Assembly: GCA_963703285.1 (NCBI GenBank)
Contig: OY969807.1
Coordinates: 480,001-544,000 of the forward strand
DNA: 64,000 nucleotides
Direction: 5' to 3'
Source: an uncultured Nitrososphaerota archaeon
GTDB taxonomy: Archaea > Thermoproteota > Nitrososphaeria > Nitrososphaerales > Gagatemarchaeaceae
In this document: positions 55,578 through 64,000 of the stretch, piece by piece
Layout: each line of letters starts with the position of its first letter
Position numbering within the stretch: position 1 is the first letter of the stretch
The notes under the pieces: model-generated
What the model was told of the DNA's origin: nothing
Seen by the model: the letters and a program-made list of their open reading frames with translations, nothing else
Database searches by the model: none
Made by a program: the position numbers and the translations under genes

Positions 55578-55739
55578 GAACACTGGGTAGTGCGATTTTT
55601 TTGCCCGGGCAGCCAGGGTGCCGCTTTGCTCCTACGAGCGTGTTTATGTCCCTCCAGGATACACTATACGTTTAGAGGGCGTCACTTGCGGTGTTCCCCT
55701 GCAAGGGAACTCGCTGAAAACGCTGAAAATTGCAGTTTT

Positions 55740-55808
55740 TCAGTTCAGGCGAAGTTGACGCCCTCCGGGCCGCGCAAGTGCCCGTCGCTGGTAGCTGTCG
55801 ATGCTCAT
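55740..55808 (-). pseudogene. Probable truncated VapC remnant (MSIDSY...)
   Basis: ATG coupled to the AbrB gene stop (TGATG); first residues resemble PIN strand 1, then stops after 22 codons. Confidence 0.45.
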
Positions 55809-56026
55809 CACGTTCGGTCCTGCTCGTCCCGTAGACCCTTGCTGTCCAGTCCGGGGTCGATGCCCTTCGCGTCCCTGATCGGCCTCACCCGGACGTATTG
55901 CAGCACCCCGTGCTTGGTAAGCACCATCATCTCGTCCCCAGGTTTTATCCCCGCTTCGCGGCGGATGCTCTCGGGTATCACTACCTGGTACCTCTTAGAG
56001 ACCTTGGCCGTGGAGGTCGATGCCAT
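55808..56026 (-). CDS. AbrB/MazE-family antitoxin
   Basis: KVSKRYQVVIPESIRREAGIKPGDE. Confidence 0.88.
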   Translation of the reverse strand: MASTSTAKVSKRYQVVIPESIRREAGIKPGDEMMVLTKHGVLQYVRVRPIRDAKGIDPGLDSKGLRDEQDRT

Positions 56027-56174
56027 ATCTGTGATAAAATGGCCTTTCGGTATAAGCGCTGCTCCCCCCGGCTTCTTCGAGCTGGGCCCGGCGGCGGGAA
56101 GGAGAATATCGGCGTTGAATTTCAACGAGGGCGTTGACGAGGTATTATCAGGAAAGCACCACATTGTCGGTGCG

Positions 56175-56930
56175 TTGGGACCAAAACAGAGGAGCTGGGT
56201 TGCAGGTCTGCTCGCATCGGGATTCGTCATCGGTCTGCTCTTCCTCAGCAGCGCGACGGCCGTTACCTCCGGCGCGCCGGGCATCCCCAACGGCACCTCG
56301 GGCAGCCTGAGCATGAGCTCCTCGACCACCACCGCGACAGAGACGGTGACCTTGATGTGCTCCGCGAGCCCGCAGACACAGCAGGTGGGGCTTCCCGTCA
56401 AGTTCACGGCGACCGCGAGCGGAGCAGACTTCGTGTCGTTCAGCTGGAACTTTGCCGACAACTCCGCCTACGGTAGCGGAAACCCCGTGAACCACACGTA
56501 CTCGAGGACGGGCACGCTTACGGTGACCGTGACCGCCAAGACGGCTCCCGGTCCGAACCAGATAACGGCGGGCGCCTCCTGCCCCGTCAACATCATCCCG
56601 AAGTATCTCAACGTGGGTGTCTCGGTGATCCCGATGACGGGCCCCTCGCCTCTGGTGTTTAACGTCACGATCAAGATAAGCAACGGAGTGGCGCCCTACA
56701 ACATCTACATCGCGCTCTCCGACTGGCAGGGTCAGGTAGTCAGTTCGTCCAACGGCTCGATCAATAGCAACAGCTACACGACGCTGTGGCGGGTAACGCC
56801 CCCCGGGATGTACATGCTCTATGTCAAGGTGACCGACGCGAGAGGGGCGACCTTCTCGACGAACATCTCCTTCATCGAAGTGTTCCAGCCCCCGCCGAAC
56901 CCCGGACCGCCCTTCGCGAAGCCACTCTAG
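56175..56930 (+). CDS. Secreted PKD-domain protein
   Basis: Signal peptide; SWNFADNS...HTYSRTG; second PKD-like repeat. Confidence 0.8.
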   Translation: MGPKQRSWVAGLLASGFVIGLLFLSSATAVTSGAPGIPNGTSGSLSMSSSTTTATETVTLMCSASPQTQQVGLPVKFTATASGADFVSFSWNFADNSAYGSGNPVNHTYSRTGTLTVTVTAKTAPGPNQITAGASCPVNIIPKYLNVGVSVIPMTGPSPLVFNVTIKISNGVAPYNIYIALSDWQGQVVSSSNGSINSNSYTTLWRVTPPGMYMLYVKVTDARGATFSTNISFIEVFQPPPNPGPPFAKPL

Positions 56931-57064: not shown

Positions 57065-57889
57065 TTGGAGCCATCGGAGCTCGACGTCACGAGGCTTTTC
57101 TTCGACCTGGCCAGTGACGATAGGCTCGTCCTGCTGGGCGAACTGGGCGCCGGCAGCCAGCGGGTGACGAAGCTCGCGGCGAAGATCTCCGCGTCGACCC
57201 AGGAGACCTCCAAGCACCTCTCCCGGCTCCAGGAGTCGCGCCTCGTCGATAGAGGCAGCGACGGCACCTTCTCGCTGACGGCCATCGGGAAGACCATCGT
57301 CCAGCTGCTCCCGCCGTTCAGGCTTCTCGTGGAGCACGAAGGTTACTTCCTTGGCCATGACCTCTCGCACCTTCCCGCCGGGTTCGTGGGCCGGCTCGGC
57401 GAGCTCTCTAGCTGCACGTTCGCCCGGTACACGGGAGAGGTCCTGGGCTTCTATGAGCGGGTGGTCGAAGAGGCGGGAGACCACATCTGGGTCATGATGG
57501 ACCACCAGCTGAGGACGAACAGCGAAATCGTGGAGGCACTGTCGGAGCGCCGCGTAGCGATACGGTACATGGTCCCCGAGAGCGATGACGTCAGGAGGGA
57601 CTACGAGGAGGCGAAAGCGATCCTGGGAGACCTGCTGGAGGTCAGGCTCAACGGGAGCGTGCCGGCCTCCGTGCTAATGGACGAGAAGGTGGCCGGCATC
57701 GCCTTCGCCGACCTCACGGGGAAGATCGATTACAACACGGGCTTCTGGAGCACGGACGCTCGGTTCCGTCGCTGGTGCGCTGACCTGTTCCAGTTCCACT
57801 GGGAGAGGGCGCGGACGCTAAGCCCACCGCGAAGCGCCCCTGTGACGTCGATGGGGTACGCGCTCGCAGGCGACCCTCCGGAGACCTGA
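57065..57889 (+). CDS. ArsR-like winged-helix transcription regulator with C-terminal effector domain (DUF1724-like)
   Basis: LFFDLASDDRL, QETSKHLSRL and F..WCADLFQFHWE. Confidence 0.85.
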   Translation: MEPSELDVTRLFFDLASDDRLVLLGELGAGSQRVTKLAAKISASTQETSKHLSRLQESRLVDRGSDGTFSLTAIGKTIVQLLPPFRLLVEHEGYFLGHDLSHLPAGFVGRLGELSSCTFARYTGEVLGFYERVVEEAGDHIWVMMDHQLRTNSEIVEALSERRVAIRYMVPESDDVRRDYEEAKAILGDLLEVRLNGSVPASVLMDEKVAGIAFADLTGKIDYNTGFWSTDARFRRWCADLFQFHWERARTLSPPRSAPVTSMGYALAGDPPET

Positions 57890-57946: not shown

Positions 57947-58009
57947 GGGAGGGGCCGCTCGAAGAAGCTCCCTTAGGCTTAATAGCATATGTGATAACGG
58001 GTGCACCAC

Positions 58010-59656
58010 TTGGCTGTTAGGGTAAGCAAATCCAAGCCTCTAGCTATATGCGTCGCCGCTGTCCTCTTCGTCCTCCTGCTCGGCATCTCGCCCCAGGCCA
58101 TGGCGTTCACCAACGGCCAGGCCGCGATAACCGCGATAGGGCAGTCCAACCTCACCTCCGGCTCCGATAACAACGGTAACGGCTTCAACGCGGTCTCCAA
58201 CGGGGTTCTCGAACCTCGCGATATAGCGTTTGACTCCCACGGCGACCTCTGGATAGCGGACACCGACAACAACAGGGTGCTCGAGTTCGTGCCCGGCACC
58301 GGGAGTTGCTCGATGGGTGTCCTGTGCACCGACATGGGGGCCAGCATCGTGATCGGGCAGAACAGCATGACCGCGAGGAACATCAACGAGGGGGCCGACG
58401 CGCCGAACTCCTCCTCCCTGAACTCTCCCTACGACATCGCGTTTGACTCCGGCGGGAACCTCTGGGTGGTCGACAGCAGCAACAACAGGATCCTCGAGTT
58501 CACGTATCCGTTCTCCGACGGGGAGGTGGCCAGCGTCGTGATAGGCCAGTCTACCTTCAATACGGGTCCGGGAGACGAGTCAGCGGGAGCGGCCGGGCTC
58601 AGCGTCCCCACGGCGCTCGCCTTCGATTCCGGCGGCGACCTGTGGGTCTCGGACAGGGGGAACAGCCGGGCCGTCGAGTTCGTCCCCGGGACGAGTGGGT
58701 GCTCATCGGGCCACCTCTGCACGGGAATGAGCGCGAGTATCGTGATAGGCCAGACGGGCTTCGGGTCGAGTACCGAGGGTCGCACGGCGACGACGATGTA
58801 CGAACCGTACGGCCTCGGCTTCGACCCCAGCGGGGACCTCTGGGTGCTCGACAGCGACAACGGCAGAGTCCTGGAGTACGTACCAGGCACTTCGCCGTGC
58901 TCCTCGGACCAGTTCTGCACCGGCATGCCGGCGAGCGTCGTGCTGAGCGAGCCGAACCTGACGAGCGGCTCGGGGAACCTATGCAAGCCCGAGACGCTCA
59001 ACGACACGGCGGAGTGCGGCGGGCAGGGCATGGCGTTCGACTCGAACGGGGACCTGTGGGTCGCGGACTCGTTCAACGACAGGGTCCTCGAGTACGTGCC
59101 GGGGACGAGCGGTTGCTCAACGGGACAGCTCTGCACCGATATGGCCGCGAGCGTCGTGATAGGCCAGGCGAACTTCATGGGTTCCGGCGAGGCCACCACG
59201 GCGGCGGGGCTCAGCGACCCGTACGGCGTGGCGTTCGACCTGAGCGGGAACCTCTGGGTCTCAGACTACAACAACAACAGGATCCTTGAGTACCAGGGCT
59301 CGGAGTCTACTAGCAGCTCGTCGAGCAGCGCTTCGAGCAGCTCGTCGTCCACGACCTCGAGCTCGTCGACGACGTCCTCGTCCATCATATCGACAGAGAT
59401 CTTGAGTGCGAGCGCGCCGGTCTGCCCCAGCACCATCGGCGGGACCTACATGCCGGTGGGCGCCACCTTCACGGATAGCTACGGCAACACATGGACGGCC
59501 CCGGGTGGCACCGCCGACGGCGGAGTATTCAGCAGCTACTTCTTCACGGGCCCTGAGCCGAATATCCCAGCGCCCATGCTCCAGGGATGGGGAGGCGTCT
59601 ACGGCACGTACCTCGGCCAACAGGGCTGGATAGTCACCTTCTACTGCGCAGATTGA
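58010..59656 (+). CDS. Secreted NHL-repeat beta-propeller protein with shared C-terminal module
   Basis: Signal peptide; six FD..G(D/N)LW..D..N.R..E repeats; Ser linker; C-terminal GWGGVYGTY..QQGWIVTFYC. Confidence 0.9.
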   Translation: MAVRVSKSKPLAICVAAVLFVLLLGISPQAMAFTNGQAAITAIGQSNLTSGSDNNGNGFNAVSNGVLEPRDIAFDSHGDLWIADTDNNRVLEFVPGTGSCSMGVLCTDMGASIVIGQNSMTARNINEGADAPNSSSLNSPYDIAFDSGGNLWVVDSSNNRILEFTYPFSDGEVASVVIGQSTFNTGPGDESAGAAGLSVPTALAFDSGGDLWVSDRGNSRAVEFVPGTSGCSSGHLCTGMSASIVIGQTGFGSSTEGRTATTMYEPYGLGFDPSGDLWVLDSDNGRVLEYVPGTSPCSSDQFCTGMPASVVLSEPNLTSGSGNLCKPETLNDTAECGGQGMAFDSNGDLWVADSFNDRVLEYVPGTSGCSTGQLCTDMAASVVIGQANFMGSGEATTAAGLSDPYGVAFDLSGNLWVSDYNNNRILEYQGSESTSSSSSSASSSSSSTTSSSSTTSSSIISTEILSASAPVCPSTIGGTYMPVGATFTDSYGNTWTAPGGTADGGVFSSYFFTGPEPNIPAPMLQGWGGVYGTYLGQQGWIVTFYCAD

Positions 59657-59667
59657 GCGAGCTCTCC

Positions 59668-59692
59668 AGCTCGATAACGAGCTCGATATCGA
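59668..59692 (+). repeat. AGCTCGATAT-type tandem motif, copy 3
   Basis: CTCCAGCTCGATAACGAGCTCGATATCGA. Confidence 0.55.
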
Positions 59693-59740
59693 ACCCCACT
59701 CCGGAATTATATATACCGCCGAATCTGACTTCGCTCCGGT

Positions 59741-60208
59741 ATGACGAGGATCGAGTCCGCCGTCCAGATCGAGGCGCCCATGGAAGTTGTCTGGGAAGTC
59801 CTCACGGACACCTCGTACATTGTGAAGCTCTTCCGGGACGCCGTGATGGTCACCGCGGACCCACCCGGCCGGTCGCAGGTCGGCCAGAAGTACCACCTGG
59901 TCGGAAAGGCGGGGAGGAGGCGGGTCGAGTTCTTCCTCGAGGTGACCGAGCTGGTCCCGGAGAGCGTGGTCGTTACGCGGCAGTTACCGGGAGGGCTCTT
60001 CAAGAGGTTCATGCAGAAGACCGTCCTCGAGGCGGACGCCGGGATGACGAGGGCGGTGACCGTCTTCGACTACGAGCTCTCGCTGAGCTACATCGGCAAG
60101 GCGCTGAACATCATCCTGGTTGAGAGGCTCGTGAAGGACAACCTGATCTCGTACTCCAACACCCTCAAGGAGCTCTCGGAGCTTCTGCCGCTTCCCGGCG
60201 GGACCTAG
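59741..60208 (+). CDS. SRPBCC (START-like) family protein 1
   Basis: IEAPMEVVWEVLTD; C-terminal helix LKELSE. Confidence 0.88.
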   Translation: MTRIESAVQIEAPMEVVWEVLTDTSYIVKLFRDAVMVTADPPGRSQVGQKYHLVGKAGRRRVEFFLEVTELVPESVVVTRQLPGGLFKRFMQKTVLEADAGMTRAVTVFDYELSLSYIGKALNIILVERLVKDNLISYSNTLKELSELLPLPGGT

Positions 60209-60262
60209 CAGCAACCACATCCTGGTCGCGTCTGGAAGCTCCCGCTGAGGAGCTTAGCTGGC

Positions 60263-60319
60263 GATAACCTGAGGTCGTAGGCGCGGAACCTGAGGAGATT
60301 TTCGAGCCCGTCCCCATTG
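60263..60319 (+). pseudogene. Degraded 3' end of an SRPBCC paralog
   Basis: Reads DNLRS*ARNL then, after a one-base shift, EIFEPVPI; matches paralog C-termini. Confidence 0.55.
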
Positions 60320-60375
60320 GTGATTGAGAACGCGGTAGCAAGCCCTATTAGTTGACGCGGGCCGGGAACGGTCCC

Positions 60376-60837
60376 ATGGAGCGGGTCCAGGTGACTCTTC
60401 TGGTGGAGGCCGGGCCCGAGGCGGTCTGGGCTGTCCTGATGGACCCCAACTTCATCCCGAAGCTCTACCCGGACATGCTCAACATCTCCGTCGATCCGCC
60501 GGGGAGGACCGCGGTCGGGCAGTACCGCACCCTCGGCGGGAGGGTGGGGAAGAGGCTGATCGAGTTCAGGACCAGGGTTGCCGAGCTCGTGCCGCTGAGG
60601 AGGTTCGTGATAACCGGGAGGAGGGGCGGGGCGCTTGAGAGCTTCCAAGAGGTCCTGGAGCTGGAGGCGGTGGACGAGGGGACGATAGTCAGGGCCTCCT
60701 TCGAGTTCAAGGTCTCCCAGGCGTACTTCGGGCCCGGGTTCGACTACCAGGCCCTCTCGCAGGCCGCCAGGCTCAACGAGGAGCTCTACGTGAAGAACCT
60801 GAAGGAGCTTTCGGAGCTCAAGCCCCCGAGCCCGTAG
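60376..60837 (+). CDS. SRPBCC family protein 2
   Basis: VEAGPEAVWAVLMDP..IPKLYP; NLKELSE. Confidence 0.88.
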   Translation: MERVQVTLLVEAGPEAVWAVLMDPNFIPKLYPDMLNISVDPPGRTAVGQYRTLGGRVGKRLIEFRTRVAELVPLRRFVITGRRGGALESFQEVLELEAVDEGTIVRASFEFKVSQAYFGPGFDYQALSQAARLNEELYVKNLKELSELKPPSP

Positions 60838-60916
60838 CCTTTGTCCCGTCCCGACGCTCTCGCGAGGCGACCCCATCCTCCCAATTATATAGTCTGGGCA
60901 AGGATTAGCACGCAGG

Positions 60917-61376
60917 TTGAAGGCCGAAGACGCGTTTGAGATCGACTCCCCGCGCTGGACGGTCTGGAAGGTCCTGGTCGACCCGTCGTACATCCCGAAA
61001 CTGTTCCCCGAGATCATAACCGTCGAGATGGACCCGCCGGGCGAGATAAGGGTCGGCTCGAAGGCCAAGGTGTACGGCAAGATAGGCAAGATCAGGTTCG
61101 AGATCCACCTCGAGTTCCCGAGGGTCGACACCGAGGCCTGCCTCATGAGCAGGCAGCTGCCGGGCGGCCTCTTCAGAGCTTTCAGCCAGGCCGTCTACCT
61201 CGAGGCGGTGGGCATGACCACACGGGTGAGGACGAGCTTCGAGTTCGCGCTCGATCCTGAGTACGCCGCGAAGGTCACCGACGTCTCGCTCTTCGAGCAG
61301 ACGGTGACCAACAACCTCCACGCGTACCGCGCGCAACCTGAAGGAGATCTGCGAGCTGCTACCGCTGCCTAGCTGA
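60917..61376 (+). CDS. SRPBCC family protein 3 (one-base frameshift near 61329)
   Basis: VWKVLVDPSYIPKLFP; removing one C gives YARNLKEICELLPLPS*. Confidence 0.85.
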
Positions 61377-61406
61377 AACCTTCGCAAGAGGGCAGCCTGA
61401 CGACTA

Positions 61407-62354
61407 TCAGTAGAAGGTGACTATCCAGCCCTGCTGGCCGTCGTATGTCCCGTAGACTCCGCCCCAACCCATCATCATGGGAACCGGAACAGAGCTCTGC
61501 GGGCAGGGGAAGAAGTAGGTGCTCATTGCGCTGCCGCCGGGAGCGACCCAGGTGTAGCCGTCTGCAGTGAAGCTGGTGCCCGGGGGCATGTAGACGCCTC
61601 CCGTGGTGCTGGGAGTCGGCGGCATGCAGGTCCCCTGTTGCTGGACGGCATTCCCCGAGTAGGTCCCCGTCCCGGTGACGGCGACGGTCGCGCAGTTCAC
61701 GTCGGTTATGGTACCCGAATTCTCGATCCCAGTGCCGCCGTTGTTCTCCACCGTTATCGTGCCCGAGTTGGTAATCGTACCGACTGGGCCGCTCGAGGTC
61801 ATGATGCCAGTGTTCCCGGCTCCTATGCTCTCCACCGTTATTGTCCCTGTGTTGGTGATGCTACCATAGGCGAAGATGCCGATGCTGCTGGCTCCGAAGT
61901 TCTCCACGGTGACTGCGCCCCCATTGGTGAAAATGCCGCCGTTCCCGTTGAAGATGCCGTCGGTGACTATGCCCGAGTTCTCCACGGTGACTGTGCCCGA
62001 GTTGGTCAAGACCCCGCCGTTGTCGATAGTGAGCCCGAAAGTCTCGAAGGCGTCGTTCGATATCGTGACGGCTCCTCCGCTGTCAACGGTGAGGGTGACT
62101 CCGTCGGCTATAATGAGAGTGCCACTGGATGCTATGCTGAGCGTCTCACCGCTCGAAACCACGACAGAGACGGACATAGTAACGCCCCCGGACACGGTGC
62201 ATGTGCTGCCCGAGTACGACAGCCCGGTACCGGTGCACCAAGAACTGAGGTCGGTGGCAGCCTGAGCCGCAGGAACCGAACACAGCGAAGTGACCGCAGC
62301 GATGCTCAGAATCAGCAGACTCAAGACGGCGAAATGGCGCTTTTGACCGCTCAA
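61407..62354 (-). CDS. Secreted beta-helix-like repeat protein with shared C-terminal module
   Basis: Signal peptide; TN.GT.TVEN repeats; C-terminal GWGGVYGTYDGQQGWIVTFY. Confidence 0.85.
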   Translation of the reverse strand: MSGQKRHFAVLSLLILSIAAVTSLCSVPAAQAATDLSSWCTGTGLSYSGSTCTVSGGVTMSVSVVVSSGETLSIASSGTLIIADGVTLTVDSGGAVTISNDAFETFGLTIDNGGVLTNSGTVTVENSGIVTDGIFNGNGGIFTNGGAVTVENFGASSIGIFAYGSITNTGTITVESIGAGNTGIMTSSGPVGTITNSGTITVENNGGTGIENSGTITDVNCATVAVTGTGTYSGNAVQQQGTCMPPTPSTTGGVYMPPGTSFTADGYTWVAPGGSAMSTYFFPCPQSSVPVPMMMGWGGVYGTYDGQQGWIVTFY

Positions 62355-62407
62355 CGTCCAATCTCCCGCTGTGCGTGACAATGTGCCCACTATAACTGCA
62401 GAGCATG

Positions 62408-62425
62408 ATTCTCAAAATTGAGAAA
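62408..62425. promoter_or_regulatory. Palindrome ATTCTCAAAATTGAGAAA, putative activator site
   Basis: On the minus strand, 12 nt upstream of TTATAGTG box at 62395. Confidence 0.72.
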
Positions 62426-62492
62426 CGCATATCGACGTATATTGAGGTATATCAACAAACAAGTGATATGGAAGAGAGGCCGTTCCGAACCT

Positions 62493-62531
62493 TTGAAGGA
62501 GATCTGCGACCTCCTCCCGCTGCCTACCTAG
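62493..62531 (+). repeat. Duplicated 3' end of SRPBCC gene 3 (LKEICDLLPLPT*)
   Basis: Imperfect direct repeat of 61338-61376. Confidence 0.7.
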
Positions 62532-62621
62532 TCCCCGTGGCGCGATGAGGACCTGGCTGGATCGGCTTTGGGGTGATGGGTTCGAGGGAGGCGCGTTTAC
62601 ATATCACAAATACACCTGTGT

Positions 62622-62903
62622 ATGGCAGTGAGGAACCTGGCCATAAGGGATGAGGTATACCGGAAGCTGCTGGACGCGAAGGCGGACAAGGAAAGCTTCA
62701 GCGACGTGATAGATCGCCTCCTTTCGAGCAGACCGAAGCTCTCTTCGTTCTCGGGAACATTTGCCGGTGACAAGGAATTCGCCTTGGTCGAGGAGGACAG
62801 ACGACGGGTGAGGTCGATGACGGTCTCAGGGCGACGTACTCTCGATGGCTCTGGATACCTGCGCCCTAATCGCGCCCCTGAAAGGAAACCAAGCCTGCAC
62901 TAG
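62622..62903 (+). CDS. VapB-family antitoxin (DUF217-like)
   Basis: NLAIRDEVYRKL...KESFSDVIDRLL. Confidence 0.8.
   Translation: MAVRNLAIRDEVYRKLLDAKADKESFSDVIDRLLSSRPKLSSFSGTFAGDKEFALVEEDRRRVRSMTVSGRRTLDGSGYLRPNRAPERKPSLH
62845..62900 (+). pseudogene. Truncated VapC remnant (MALDTCALIAPLKGN)
   Basis: PIN-like N-terminus directly after VapB, then runs into the convergent gene. Confidence 0.6.
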
Positions 62904-62919
62904 GTGCGGCTCTGCTCTA

Positions 62920-64000
62920 CTAGCAGTAGAAGGTGACTATCCAGCCCTGCTGGCCGTTGTACGTACCGTAGACTCCTCCCCACCCCTGCAACATCGGAGC
63001 CGGGATGTTCAACTCTGGCCCTTGGAAGAAGTAGCTGCTGAACACTCCGCCGTTGGCGGTGCCGCCCGGAGCGGTCCAGGTGTTGCCGTAGCCATCGGTG
63101 AAGGTGGCGCCGACGGGCATGTAGACCCCACCTAGGGTGCTTGGGCAGACCGGGGGAGCGTTCGGGTTGGTAGACGAGGCCGTCGTGGACGTCGTCGAAG
63201 ATGAGGTAGTGCTGGAAGACGAGCTGCTGCTCGAGCTCGAAGATGATGTGGTCGAGGACCCGCCGATCTGCGAGTAGTAGTCATCGCTGTACTGGCCGCC
63301 TATGCAGTACACGTAGCCGCCCGACAGGGCGCACTGGGCATATGCCACAGCCTTGGGATACGCTGCGGTGGAAATCCAAGTACCGGGATTGCCGCTCGTG
63401 AGCGCGGCGTAGTATACCGTCTGCCCCACACCCCCGTTGTAGCCGCCCATGCAGTAGAGGTAACCGGAGCTCGTGACGCACGGATAGTTCTGTACGTCGG
63501 ACGGGTACAGCGAGGTCGAGTTGGTCCAGGTCGCTCCCACCGCGCCGTTGCTTATCGTATCGTAGGCGACCTGGTCGGTCGCGTAGCCGTGGTACGGGTT
63601 GTAGTTCCCTCCCACGCAGGTGATGTAGCCGCCTGCGGCGACGCACGCCTCGCCGCTGTCCCCTTCTGTTATCGCATAGTTAGTGGTGGGGGTCCAGGAG
63701 CCCACAGCCCCGTCCGTTATCTGGGCGTAGTTGACCGCGTCAGTCGCTCCTCCCGCTTCGTCAGGCGTCAGCAGCCCGCCCACACAGGTGATGTAGTTGT
63801 TCGAGGCGCCGGAGAGGACGCAGGAGCTGGCTTCCATGGCGTCCGGGTAATGGGTCGTAGCGGTCCAGACGCCGACAGTGCCGCCGGAGACCGATGCGTA
63901 GTAGACTGCGTTGCTCTCCTCGATGCTCGGGGTGGCTTCGATTATGCCCGCGACGCACGTCATGTAGCCCCCGGAGATGACGCATGAGGGGAAGTAGCTG
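62920..64000 (-). CDS. Kelch-like repeat protein with shared C-terminal module (5' end outside window)
   Basis: C...GGY.YC.GG...VYYA...W..T..YP repeats; Ser linker; C-terminal GWGGVYGTYNGQQGWIVTFYC. Confidence 0.85.
   Translation of the reverse strand, partial: SYFPSCVISGGYMTCVAGIIEATPSIEESNAVYYASVSGGTVGVWTATTHYPDAMEASSCVLSGASNNYITCVGGLLTPDEAGGATDAVNYAQITDGAVGSWTPTTNYAITEGDSGEACVAAGGYITCVGGNYNPYHGYATDQVAYDTISNGAVGATWTNSTSLYPSDVQNYPCVTSSGYLYCMGGYNGGVGQTVYYAALTSGNPGTWISTAAYPKAVAYAQCALSGGYVYCIGGQYSDDYYSQIGGSSTTSSSSSSSSSSSSTTSSSTTSTTASSTNPNAPPVCPSTLGGVYMPVGATFTDGYGNTWTAPGGTANGGVFSSYFFQGPELNIPAPMLQGWGGVYGTYNGQQGWIVTFYC

Follow-up and report, generated by a model that had tools for sequence, protein, structure and literature searches.

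An undescribed C-terminal module on secreted proteins of Gagatemarchaeaceae archaea, probably a new variant of non-covalent surface anchor

Portable terminal domains that hold unrelated secreted proteins to the envelope without a covalent bond have been described in monoderm bacteria, where the SLH (PF00395) and CWB2 (PF04122) domains mediate non-covalent wall binding (passages in PMC8559796 and PMC5817068). For archaea, the corresponding passages of PMC8559796 name two kinds of surface anchor, the transmembrane helix and lipid attachment, and regard archaeal anchoring as poorly understood. Here, we describe a C-terminal module on secreted proteins encoded in a stretch of 64,000 nucleotides (the window; contig OY969807.1, positions 480,001 to 544,000) from an uncultured Nitrososphaerota archaeon of the family Gagatemarchaeaceae, whose own genome (G000) is a single contig of 2.25 Mb that is 96% complete. 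This module represents an undescribed domain family, whose confident predicted fold is unmatched, and is probably a new variant of non-covalent surface anchor. In the window it closes three secreted proteins, as follows.

58010..59656, + strand: secreted NHL beta-propeller protein, with signal peptide, NHL repeats, Ser/Thr linker and C-terminal module
59300..59416, + strand: Ser/Thr-rich linker preceding module copy 1, identified from sequence
59417..59647, + strand: module copy 1, 77 residues with Cys3 and Cys77, beta-rich with one short helix in the model
61407..62354, - strand: secreted protein with N.GT.TVEN-type repeats and a C-terminal module, beta-helix-like by eye
61410..61622, - strand: module copy 2, 71 residues, a short-loop form that lacks the terminal Cys pair
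62920..64000, - strand: secreted Kelch-like propeller protein with Ser/Thr linker and module, running about 0.3-0.4 kb beyond the window end
62923..63153, - strand: module copy 3, 77 residues, 91% identical to copy 1
63154..63258, - strand: Ser/Thr-rich linker preceding module copy 3, identified from sequence

Evidence for an anchoring role comes from homologues of the NHL protein, which occur in 15 of the 23 genomes of the genus and whose C-termini were read, where readable, from the top 30 matches (loci). In eight genomes without the module, all nine NHL homologues with a readable C-terminus end in a PEF-like motif with a hydrophobic helix or in a plain helix, mostly behind the same Ser/Thr linker, and in module-bearing genomes seven of ten end in the module (one of them frameshifted) and three in a helix. 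A similar exchange is seen in a stalk of three Ig domains, which in P0064 leads into the module and in its G000 homologue (52% identity over 280 residues) into a linker and a transmembrane helix. Three Kelch-like G000 paralogues without the module have apparent N-terminal membrane anchors, as judged by eye. In the NHL and Ig-stalk comparisons the module was found to replace known anchors on homologues, which is the property by which its membership among non-covalent surface anchors was judged, and the membrane anchor that close relatives bear at this site makes a non-covalent surface tether the probable reading.

The PEF-like tails fall below the NCBIfam cut-off (best match to TIGR03024 at E 0.012). 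Archaeosortase genes adjoin several of the NHL genes (G003:C55, G014:C1, G017:C7 and G021:C8), and several tails near them read VPEFP, VPVFPYQ or VPEYPYQ, below the PEF-CTERM cut-offs; VPEFP-type tails are possibly a lineage-specific archaeosortase signal. An archaeosortase match is present in 18 of the 22 other genomes of the genus, including all six other module carriers. In G000, no archaeosortase was detected with PF09721, tblastn or a genus-specific hidden Markov model (HMM), nor was any PEF tail, and the archaeosortase system appears to have been lost there.

A prior reading of the window from its letters and open reading frames (the sequence-only reading) had proposed that three proteins with unrelated bodies share a portable, unrecognised C-terminal module. 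The three reading frames and the quoted motif are all present, and BLAST links none of the three bodies to another. The signal peptides that it placed on the first two proteins hold up, and the Kelch-like protein has one too, just past the window end. An HMM built from the three copies, the check that it had suggested, finds seven copies in G000, all at E<=4e-28, whereas the match ranked after them has E=1.5. Each of the seven carriers has an N-terminal hydrophobic segment of at least 2.3 and a best 17-residue Kyte-Doolittle (KD) mean of at most 1.25 in its last 85 residues (17-residue KD means being a heuristic for hydrophobic segments and signal peptides), in agreement with the claim that a C-terminal transmembrane anchor is lacking. 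A wider pool of 133 sequences gave 96 distinct full-length modules after partial, duplicate and frameshifted ones were dropped, where the module lies within 10 residues of the C-terminus in 92, is followed by one further domain in 4 and by a hydrophobic helix in none. Neither a known-domain match nor a majority of standalone, internal or cytoplasmic homologues, named beforehand as observations that would speak against a portable new domain, was found.

Across these 96 modules the composition is 3.8% charged, 17% aromatic and 29% Gly plus Pro, and almost no charged or catalytic-type residue is conserved. The two terminal Cys residues covary, with both present in 81, both absent in 13 and a single one in 2 (P0065 has the C-terminal Cys only), and they would form a Cys3-Cys77 disulfide. 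AlphaFold2, run on 53 rows, predicts six strands and one short (4-residue) helix (pLDDT 94.5, pTM 0.84), with the monomer folding fully alone in the model. None of 53 members reaches the cut-off in Pfam-A (best E 0.026) or in NCBIfam (best E 0.017, to Frankia-40, with 12 members matching over 14-15 residues), and PDB sequences give no match at E<0.19; the small fold, as modelled, is apparently new. No published description of the module was found in the full-text literature, in which unnamed domains are hard to find and from which subscription papers fell outside the search. The two closest window copies differ by 23.5 synonymous and 11.5 non-synonymous changes (dS 0.65, dN 0.07), in line with the excess of synonymous differences reported earlier. 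Since dN is below dS in 21 of 21 module pairs in G000, and pN below pS in 496 of 496 pairs across seven genomes, this is a selected protein domain and not a DNA repeat.

Several described systems resemble the module in one respect and differ in others. The SLH and CWB2 domains are mainly alpha-helical, occur as tandem triplets and bind peptidoglycan-linked polymers, whereas the module is a single beta-rich domain in a host with no described wall polymer; identity with them was rejected on the lack of a profile match, the single copy per protein and the beta-rich model. The last 30 or so residues resemble the C-terminal hairpin of SH3b/GW domains (SH3_3 PF08239, SH3_8 PF13457), where hhalign against an SH3_3 protein gives a probability of 70% and a pairwise E of 4e-5 over about 30 columns, the hairpin only. 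Staphylococcal autolysin repeats (4epc) match weakly in sequence (E 0.19-0.36), and in Foldseek the whole model fails to superpose on them (TM 0.20, rmsd 10.5); no SH3 chain is among the VIA structure matches listed, a listing that an SH3 beta-barrel could have escaped. None of the 53 members matches an SH3 Pfam family at E<=0.5, and an SH3b/GW assignment by profile over the whole domain was rejected. The targets of archaeosortases (PGF-CTERM, PEF-CTERM TIGR03024) occupy the same slot behind the Ser/Thr linker on homologous NHL proteins of the genus; they consist of a motif, a helix and a basic tail, whereas the module is a globular domain without such a tail, and identity was rejected with no hydrophobic helix in or after the module and no archaeosortase detected in G000. 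Dockerin-cohesin pairs and the C-terminal domain of the type IX secretion system (T9SS; PF18962) likewise involve C-terminal portable modules on varied passengers, and the genome-specific flavours of the module recall the species specificity of dockerins. A dockerin was rejected on the lack of duplicated acidic calcium-loop repeats, the 3.8% charge and the single 4-residue helix, and no secreted protein with internal repeats of at least 60 residues, as in a cohesin-like scaffold, occurs among 100 screened. The T9SS domain was rejected on the lack of a PF18962 or TIGR04183 match and of an Ig-sandwich match; to our knowledge, an outer-membrane system is not expected in this archaeon.

The seven G000 carriers comprise three NHL proteins (two with Ig stalks), a Kelch-like, a beta-helix-like and a Gly-rich protein, and one standalone form made of a signal peptide and the module. 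More widely, scoring 7,998 candidates from a search of longer proteins gave 58 family proteins, 25 candidates of standalone length yielded 14 standalone-type clusters, and an unfiltered HMM search of 1.84 billion representatives returned 54 matches, of which 40 were accepted on reading and 14 set aside as repeat-summed or short. Passengers are NHL, Kelch-like, Ig-like, DUF or unannotated repeat proteins, with no clear catalytic domain in 46 scanned carriers or in a further scanned set; PhoX, SGL and Vgb matches on NHL propellers cover just part of their models, and P0045, with an N-terminal OB fold, lies on a 1.3-kb contig and is possibly chimeric. In the standalone subfamily the module has a loop insertion of 8-11 residues, GFGG in place of GWGG, TDYC in place of TFYC and a short hydrophobic C-terminal tail. 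P0079 (333 residues) combines an N-terminal membrane anchor, a Ser/Thr stalk, a middle domain and a divergent module (hhalign 98%), and no relatives of similar length were found.

Named carriers are metagenome-assembled genomes (MAGs) of Nitrososphaerota, including Ca. Gagatemarchaeum stordalenia, which suggests that G000 belongs to this genus. The module is present in 7 of the 23 genus genomes (G000, G001, G002, G009, G010, G014 and G021, with 2-10 matches each), in none of the 18 relatives compared from elsewhere in the order, and in one of 400 drawn from the class (G136), which belongs to another family, is 59% complete and has one frameshifted copy. The EF-2 of G136 is 72% identical to that of G000, and its copy reflects either transfer or misbinning. 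In both GAPDH and EF-2 trees the distribution needs two changes, with carriers falling in one sub-clade (G000, G001, G002, G009 and G014, joined by G010 on EF-2) and in a separate G021, whose sister G003 has no module match and is 73% complete. Most genus genomes are incomplete and several have frameshifted housekeeping genes, and little weight can therefore be put on an absent or broken copy.

The module travels apart from its passenger. For 16 of 32 copies the nearest DNA neighbour lies in the same genome, where shuffling predicts 4.9 and attained such a count in 4 of 20,000 trials. Restricting the comparison to the 24 copies whose passenger is classified gives 12 pairings by genome and 11 by passenger type, against expectations of 3.6 and 5.6, so both signals exist. 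The module of the window NHL protein is 91% identical to that of the neighbouring Kelch-like protein and 67-75% identical to those of its closest NHL homologues elsewhere, and in G009 a Kelch and an NHL protein have identical modules that differ by 9 synonymous and 0 non-synonymous changes, with the shared DNA limited to the module. At the DNA level, module-limited recombination copies the module to new passengers and homogenises it within a genome. Gene conversion with purifying selection is enough to explain this homogenisation; co-evolution with a genome-specific partner is possible, and outside the closest pairs there is little extra constraint within genomes. Other G000 surface genes include secreted or membrane pairs with identical C-terminal 75 residues (G000:225270-225959 vs 221579-222793; 1884758-1885429 vs 2039980-2040651), which suggests recent duplication or conversion.

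A possible binding site is suggested by links to a putative S-layer. Elsewhere in G000 (G000:78754-83006; L112:4754-9006), a 1018-residue secreted protein without an anchor adjoins a 433-residue Ig/coiled-coil/transmembrane protein, and by size, order and architecture this is a probable slaA-slaB pair in a non-ammonia-oxidising thaumarchaeote (for the comparison, passages in PMC5744192 and PMC10903991). The pair is like SlaA/SlaB of Sulfolobales in gene adjacency and architecture, and the module itself belongs to neither protein; for SlaA of S. acidocaldarius, dimerisation through its C-terminal domain D6 and a possible contact of D6 with SlaB are described (passages in PMC10903991). Five proteins (P0051, P0052, P0053, P0056 and a 488-residue G001 protein) carry the module followed by the putative SlaA C-terminal domain (E 1e-28 to G000:78754-81810). 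This domain is itself portable, with standalone secreted forms and N- or C-terminal fusions (G000:1284095-1285935, 1649783-1650829; L147-L172), and it is matched in 18 of 41 genomes, none of them outside the family. A G000-type SlaA body with a close SlaB (E<1e-30) occurs in all seven module-bearing genus genomes and in one of 16 without the module (G005), and G021 has both this S-layer type and the module despite lying outside the main clade on GAPDH and EF-2. The SlaB-like N-terminal Ig domain occurs seven times in G000 (893898, 903626, 1221481, 1223264, 1939216, 2099209), several times on N-terminally anchored Ser/Thr stalks, and with 4-10 matches in module-bearing genomes; such proteins are candidate receptors or S-layer props.

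We consider there to be about an even chance that the module folds independently as an extracellular domain, usually closed by a disulfide, and non-covalently holds Sec-exported, adhesin-like proteins at the surface, in place of a transmembrane or archaeosortase anchor. Its position, the swaps and the type of passenger are seen directly, and the ligand and interface are what we infer. In this mechanism, export would proceed by a class I signal peptide, as predicted heuristically, and folding would be completed by a putative Cys3-Cys77 bond joining both ends. The uncharged, aromatic-rich surface might then bind to the envelope of the cell itself, with the lineage's two-component S-layer or the glycans on it as the likeliest target, and a Ser/Thr, Pro or Ig stalk would present the propeller or beta-helix-like head outward, as the architecture suggests. 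Module-limited recombination, for which the DNA-level evidence is given above, would spread the module to new passengers and even out the copies within a genome, and the standalone form may bind the same target without cargo. Several points weigh against this reading. In the five SlaA fusions and P0079 a second probable anchor is present, and anchoring there does not have to depend on the module; nor does the model require a cargo-free standalone tether. Archaeosortases are still encoded in six of the seven module-bearing genomes. The SlaB candidate has a weak SlaB match (E 1e-4) far below the NCBIfam cut-off, and no Pfam, NCBIfam or PDB entry matches the SlaA candidate, whose homology to Sulfolobales SlaA was undetectable. 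The S-layer correlation is confounded by kinship, by bias from the G000 SlaA query and by the incompleteness of the MAGs. The SlaA type occurs without the module in G005, and the module without a SlaA match in G136; G003 has neither SlaA body nor module, but its genome is incomplete (73%).

A more specific form of the tether, which we put forward tentatively, is a new-fold docking or co-assembly domain that plugs swappable adhesin heads into the two-component S-layer, where concerted evolution would keep a strain-specific fit and the standalone form would fill or nucleate sites. It is rather doubtful that the copies instead bind one another, building a fibre, sheath or matrix in which the standalone form is the bulk subunit and the fusions are decorated subunits, as in the co-polymers of short and long chaplins in Streptomyces. 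The conserved standalone subfamily, with its loop insertion, GFGG, TDYC and hydrophobic tail, fits such assembly, as does the protein-level likeness within a genome (9 synonymous and 0 non-synonymous changes in G009) that mutual compatibility would demand. However, the standalone copy in G000 is not homogenised with the fused copies (62-67% DNA identity), no standalone form was found in G021 and those of G009, G010 and G014 look broken (assembly error is possible), the modelled monomer folds fully alone, and gene conversion with ordinary purifying selection also accounts for the homogenisation, the constraint excess being small beyond the closest pairs. An outward-facing domain of the carbohydrate-binding module (CBM) or lectin type, by which released or loosely held proteins would stick to external plant or fungal polysaccharide or humic matter, seems unlikely. 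A small, disulfide-closed, uncharged, Trp/Tyr/Phe-rich domain behind a Ser/Thr linker does have the usual look of a CBM, and in P0079 an N-terminally anchored stalk is capped by a divergent module. Passages of PMC10640624, the main text of which does not use 'S-layer', 'surface' or 'adhes', describe the family as degrading complex carbohydrates and as having secreted carbohydrate-active enzymes (CAZymes). Nevertheless, no glycoside hydrolase, peptidase or other clear enzyme was found to carry the module, assignment as a CBM by CAZyme association was rejected with no CAZyme domain among scanned carriers, it is almost never tandem or N-terminal, no CBM matches its sequence, and such binding leaves unexplained why it fills the slot of a membrane anchor.

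Insertion of exposed aromatics into the outer face of the tetraether membrane, as a monotopic anchor, is very improbable: the module is aromatic-rich, uncharged and takes the position of transmembrane anchors, but its sequence has no hydrophobic or basic patch, and its fusion to the SlaA-like domain suggests a place in the outer lattice instead. The sequence-only reading had spoken of an anchoring or sorting system; anchoring gains indirect support from the anchor swaps and the links to the putative S-layer, whereas sorting does not. We give hardly any weight to a C-terminal sorting or processing signal read by dedicated machinery, akin to the T9SS domain or archaeosortase targets, or to a cleaved folding chaperone. 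Its C-terminal place in 92 of 96 and its very high conservation would suit such a signal, yet the carriers already have ordinary N-terminal signal peptides, 14 standalone clusters and five internal copies exist, there is no motif-helix-basic tail and no archaeosortase in G000, almost no charged or catalytic-type residue is conserved, and no partner gene recurs beside the module. The word 'system' went too far, as neither a receptor nor any machinery was identified and the module is confined to one part of a single genus.

Among neighbouring genes, none recurs beyond three SRPBCC proteins at one syntenic locus, transposases and toxin-antitoxin genes. In the window (59741-61372, +), three tandem SRPBCC/START-like proteins (Polyketide_cyc2) lie between the module genes, and this cluster recurs beside module genes in 14 loci, some of them redundant. 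Directly downstream of the Gly-rich module gene of G000 lies a TatC-like membrane protein (G000:1717639-1718376, -; L004:6642-7376; E 2.5e-4, below cut-off). Upstream of the NHL gene are a secreted PKD-domain protein (55590-56930, +) and an HTH/FilR1-like regulator (57065-57889, +), which sit amid VapBC-like toxin-antitoxin genes, and the region looks like a variable surface-gene island. The NHL gene has an alternative GTG start at 58001 within its open frame, its body passes Pfam (NHL, E 2.6e-36), and the linker before copy 1 may be O-glycosylated. The Kelch-like body is under the Pfam cut-off here (E 2e-5), and its relatives pass Kelch_1/Kelch_6; for the body at 61407..62354 the sole Pfam hint is Fil_haemagg (E 0.38), the beta-helix label being by eye and unconfirmed. 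Short-read contigs from run X1 cross the passenger-module junction in all three window genes; X1 may be the source sample, so they argue only against an assembly chimera.

The module is narrow in range, being confined to some members of a single uncultured genus from acidic soils and peat. If an S-layer-only archaeon does use a portable non-covalent tether, this would nevertheless add a third anchoring route to the two described, together with an apparently new small fold, and at 77 residues, uncharged and disulfide-closed, the module should be easy to express, solve and test and may serve as a display tag. If it does plug adhesin heads into the S-layer, it would constitute a modular S-layer display system, for which the sources searched describe no archaeal equivalent.

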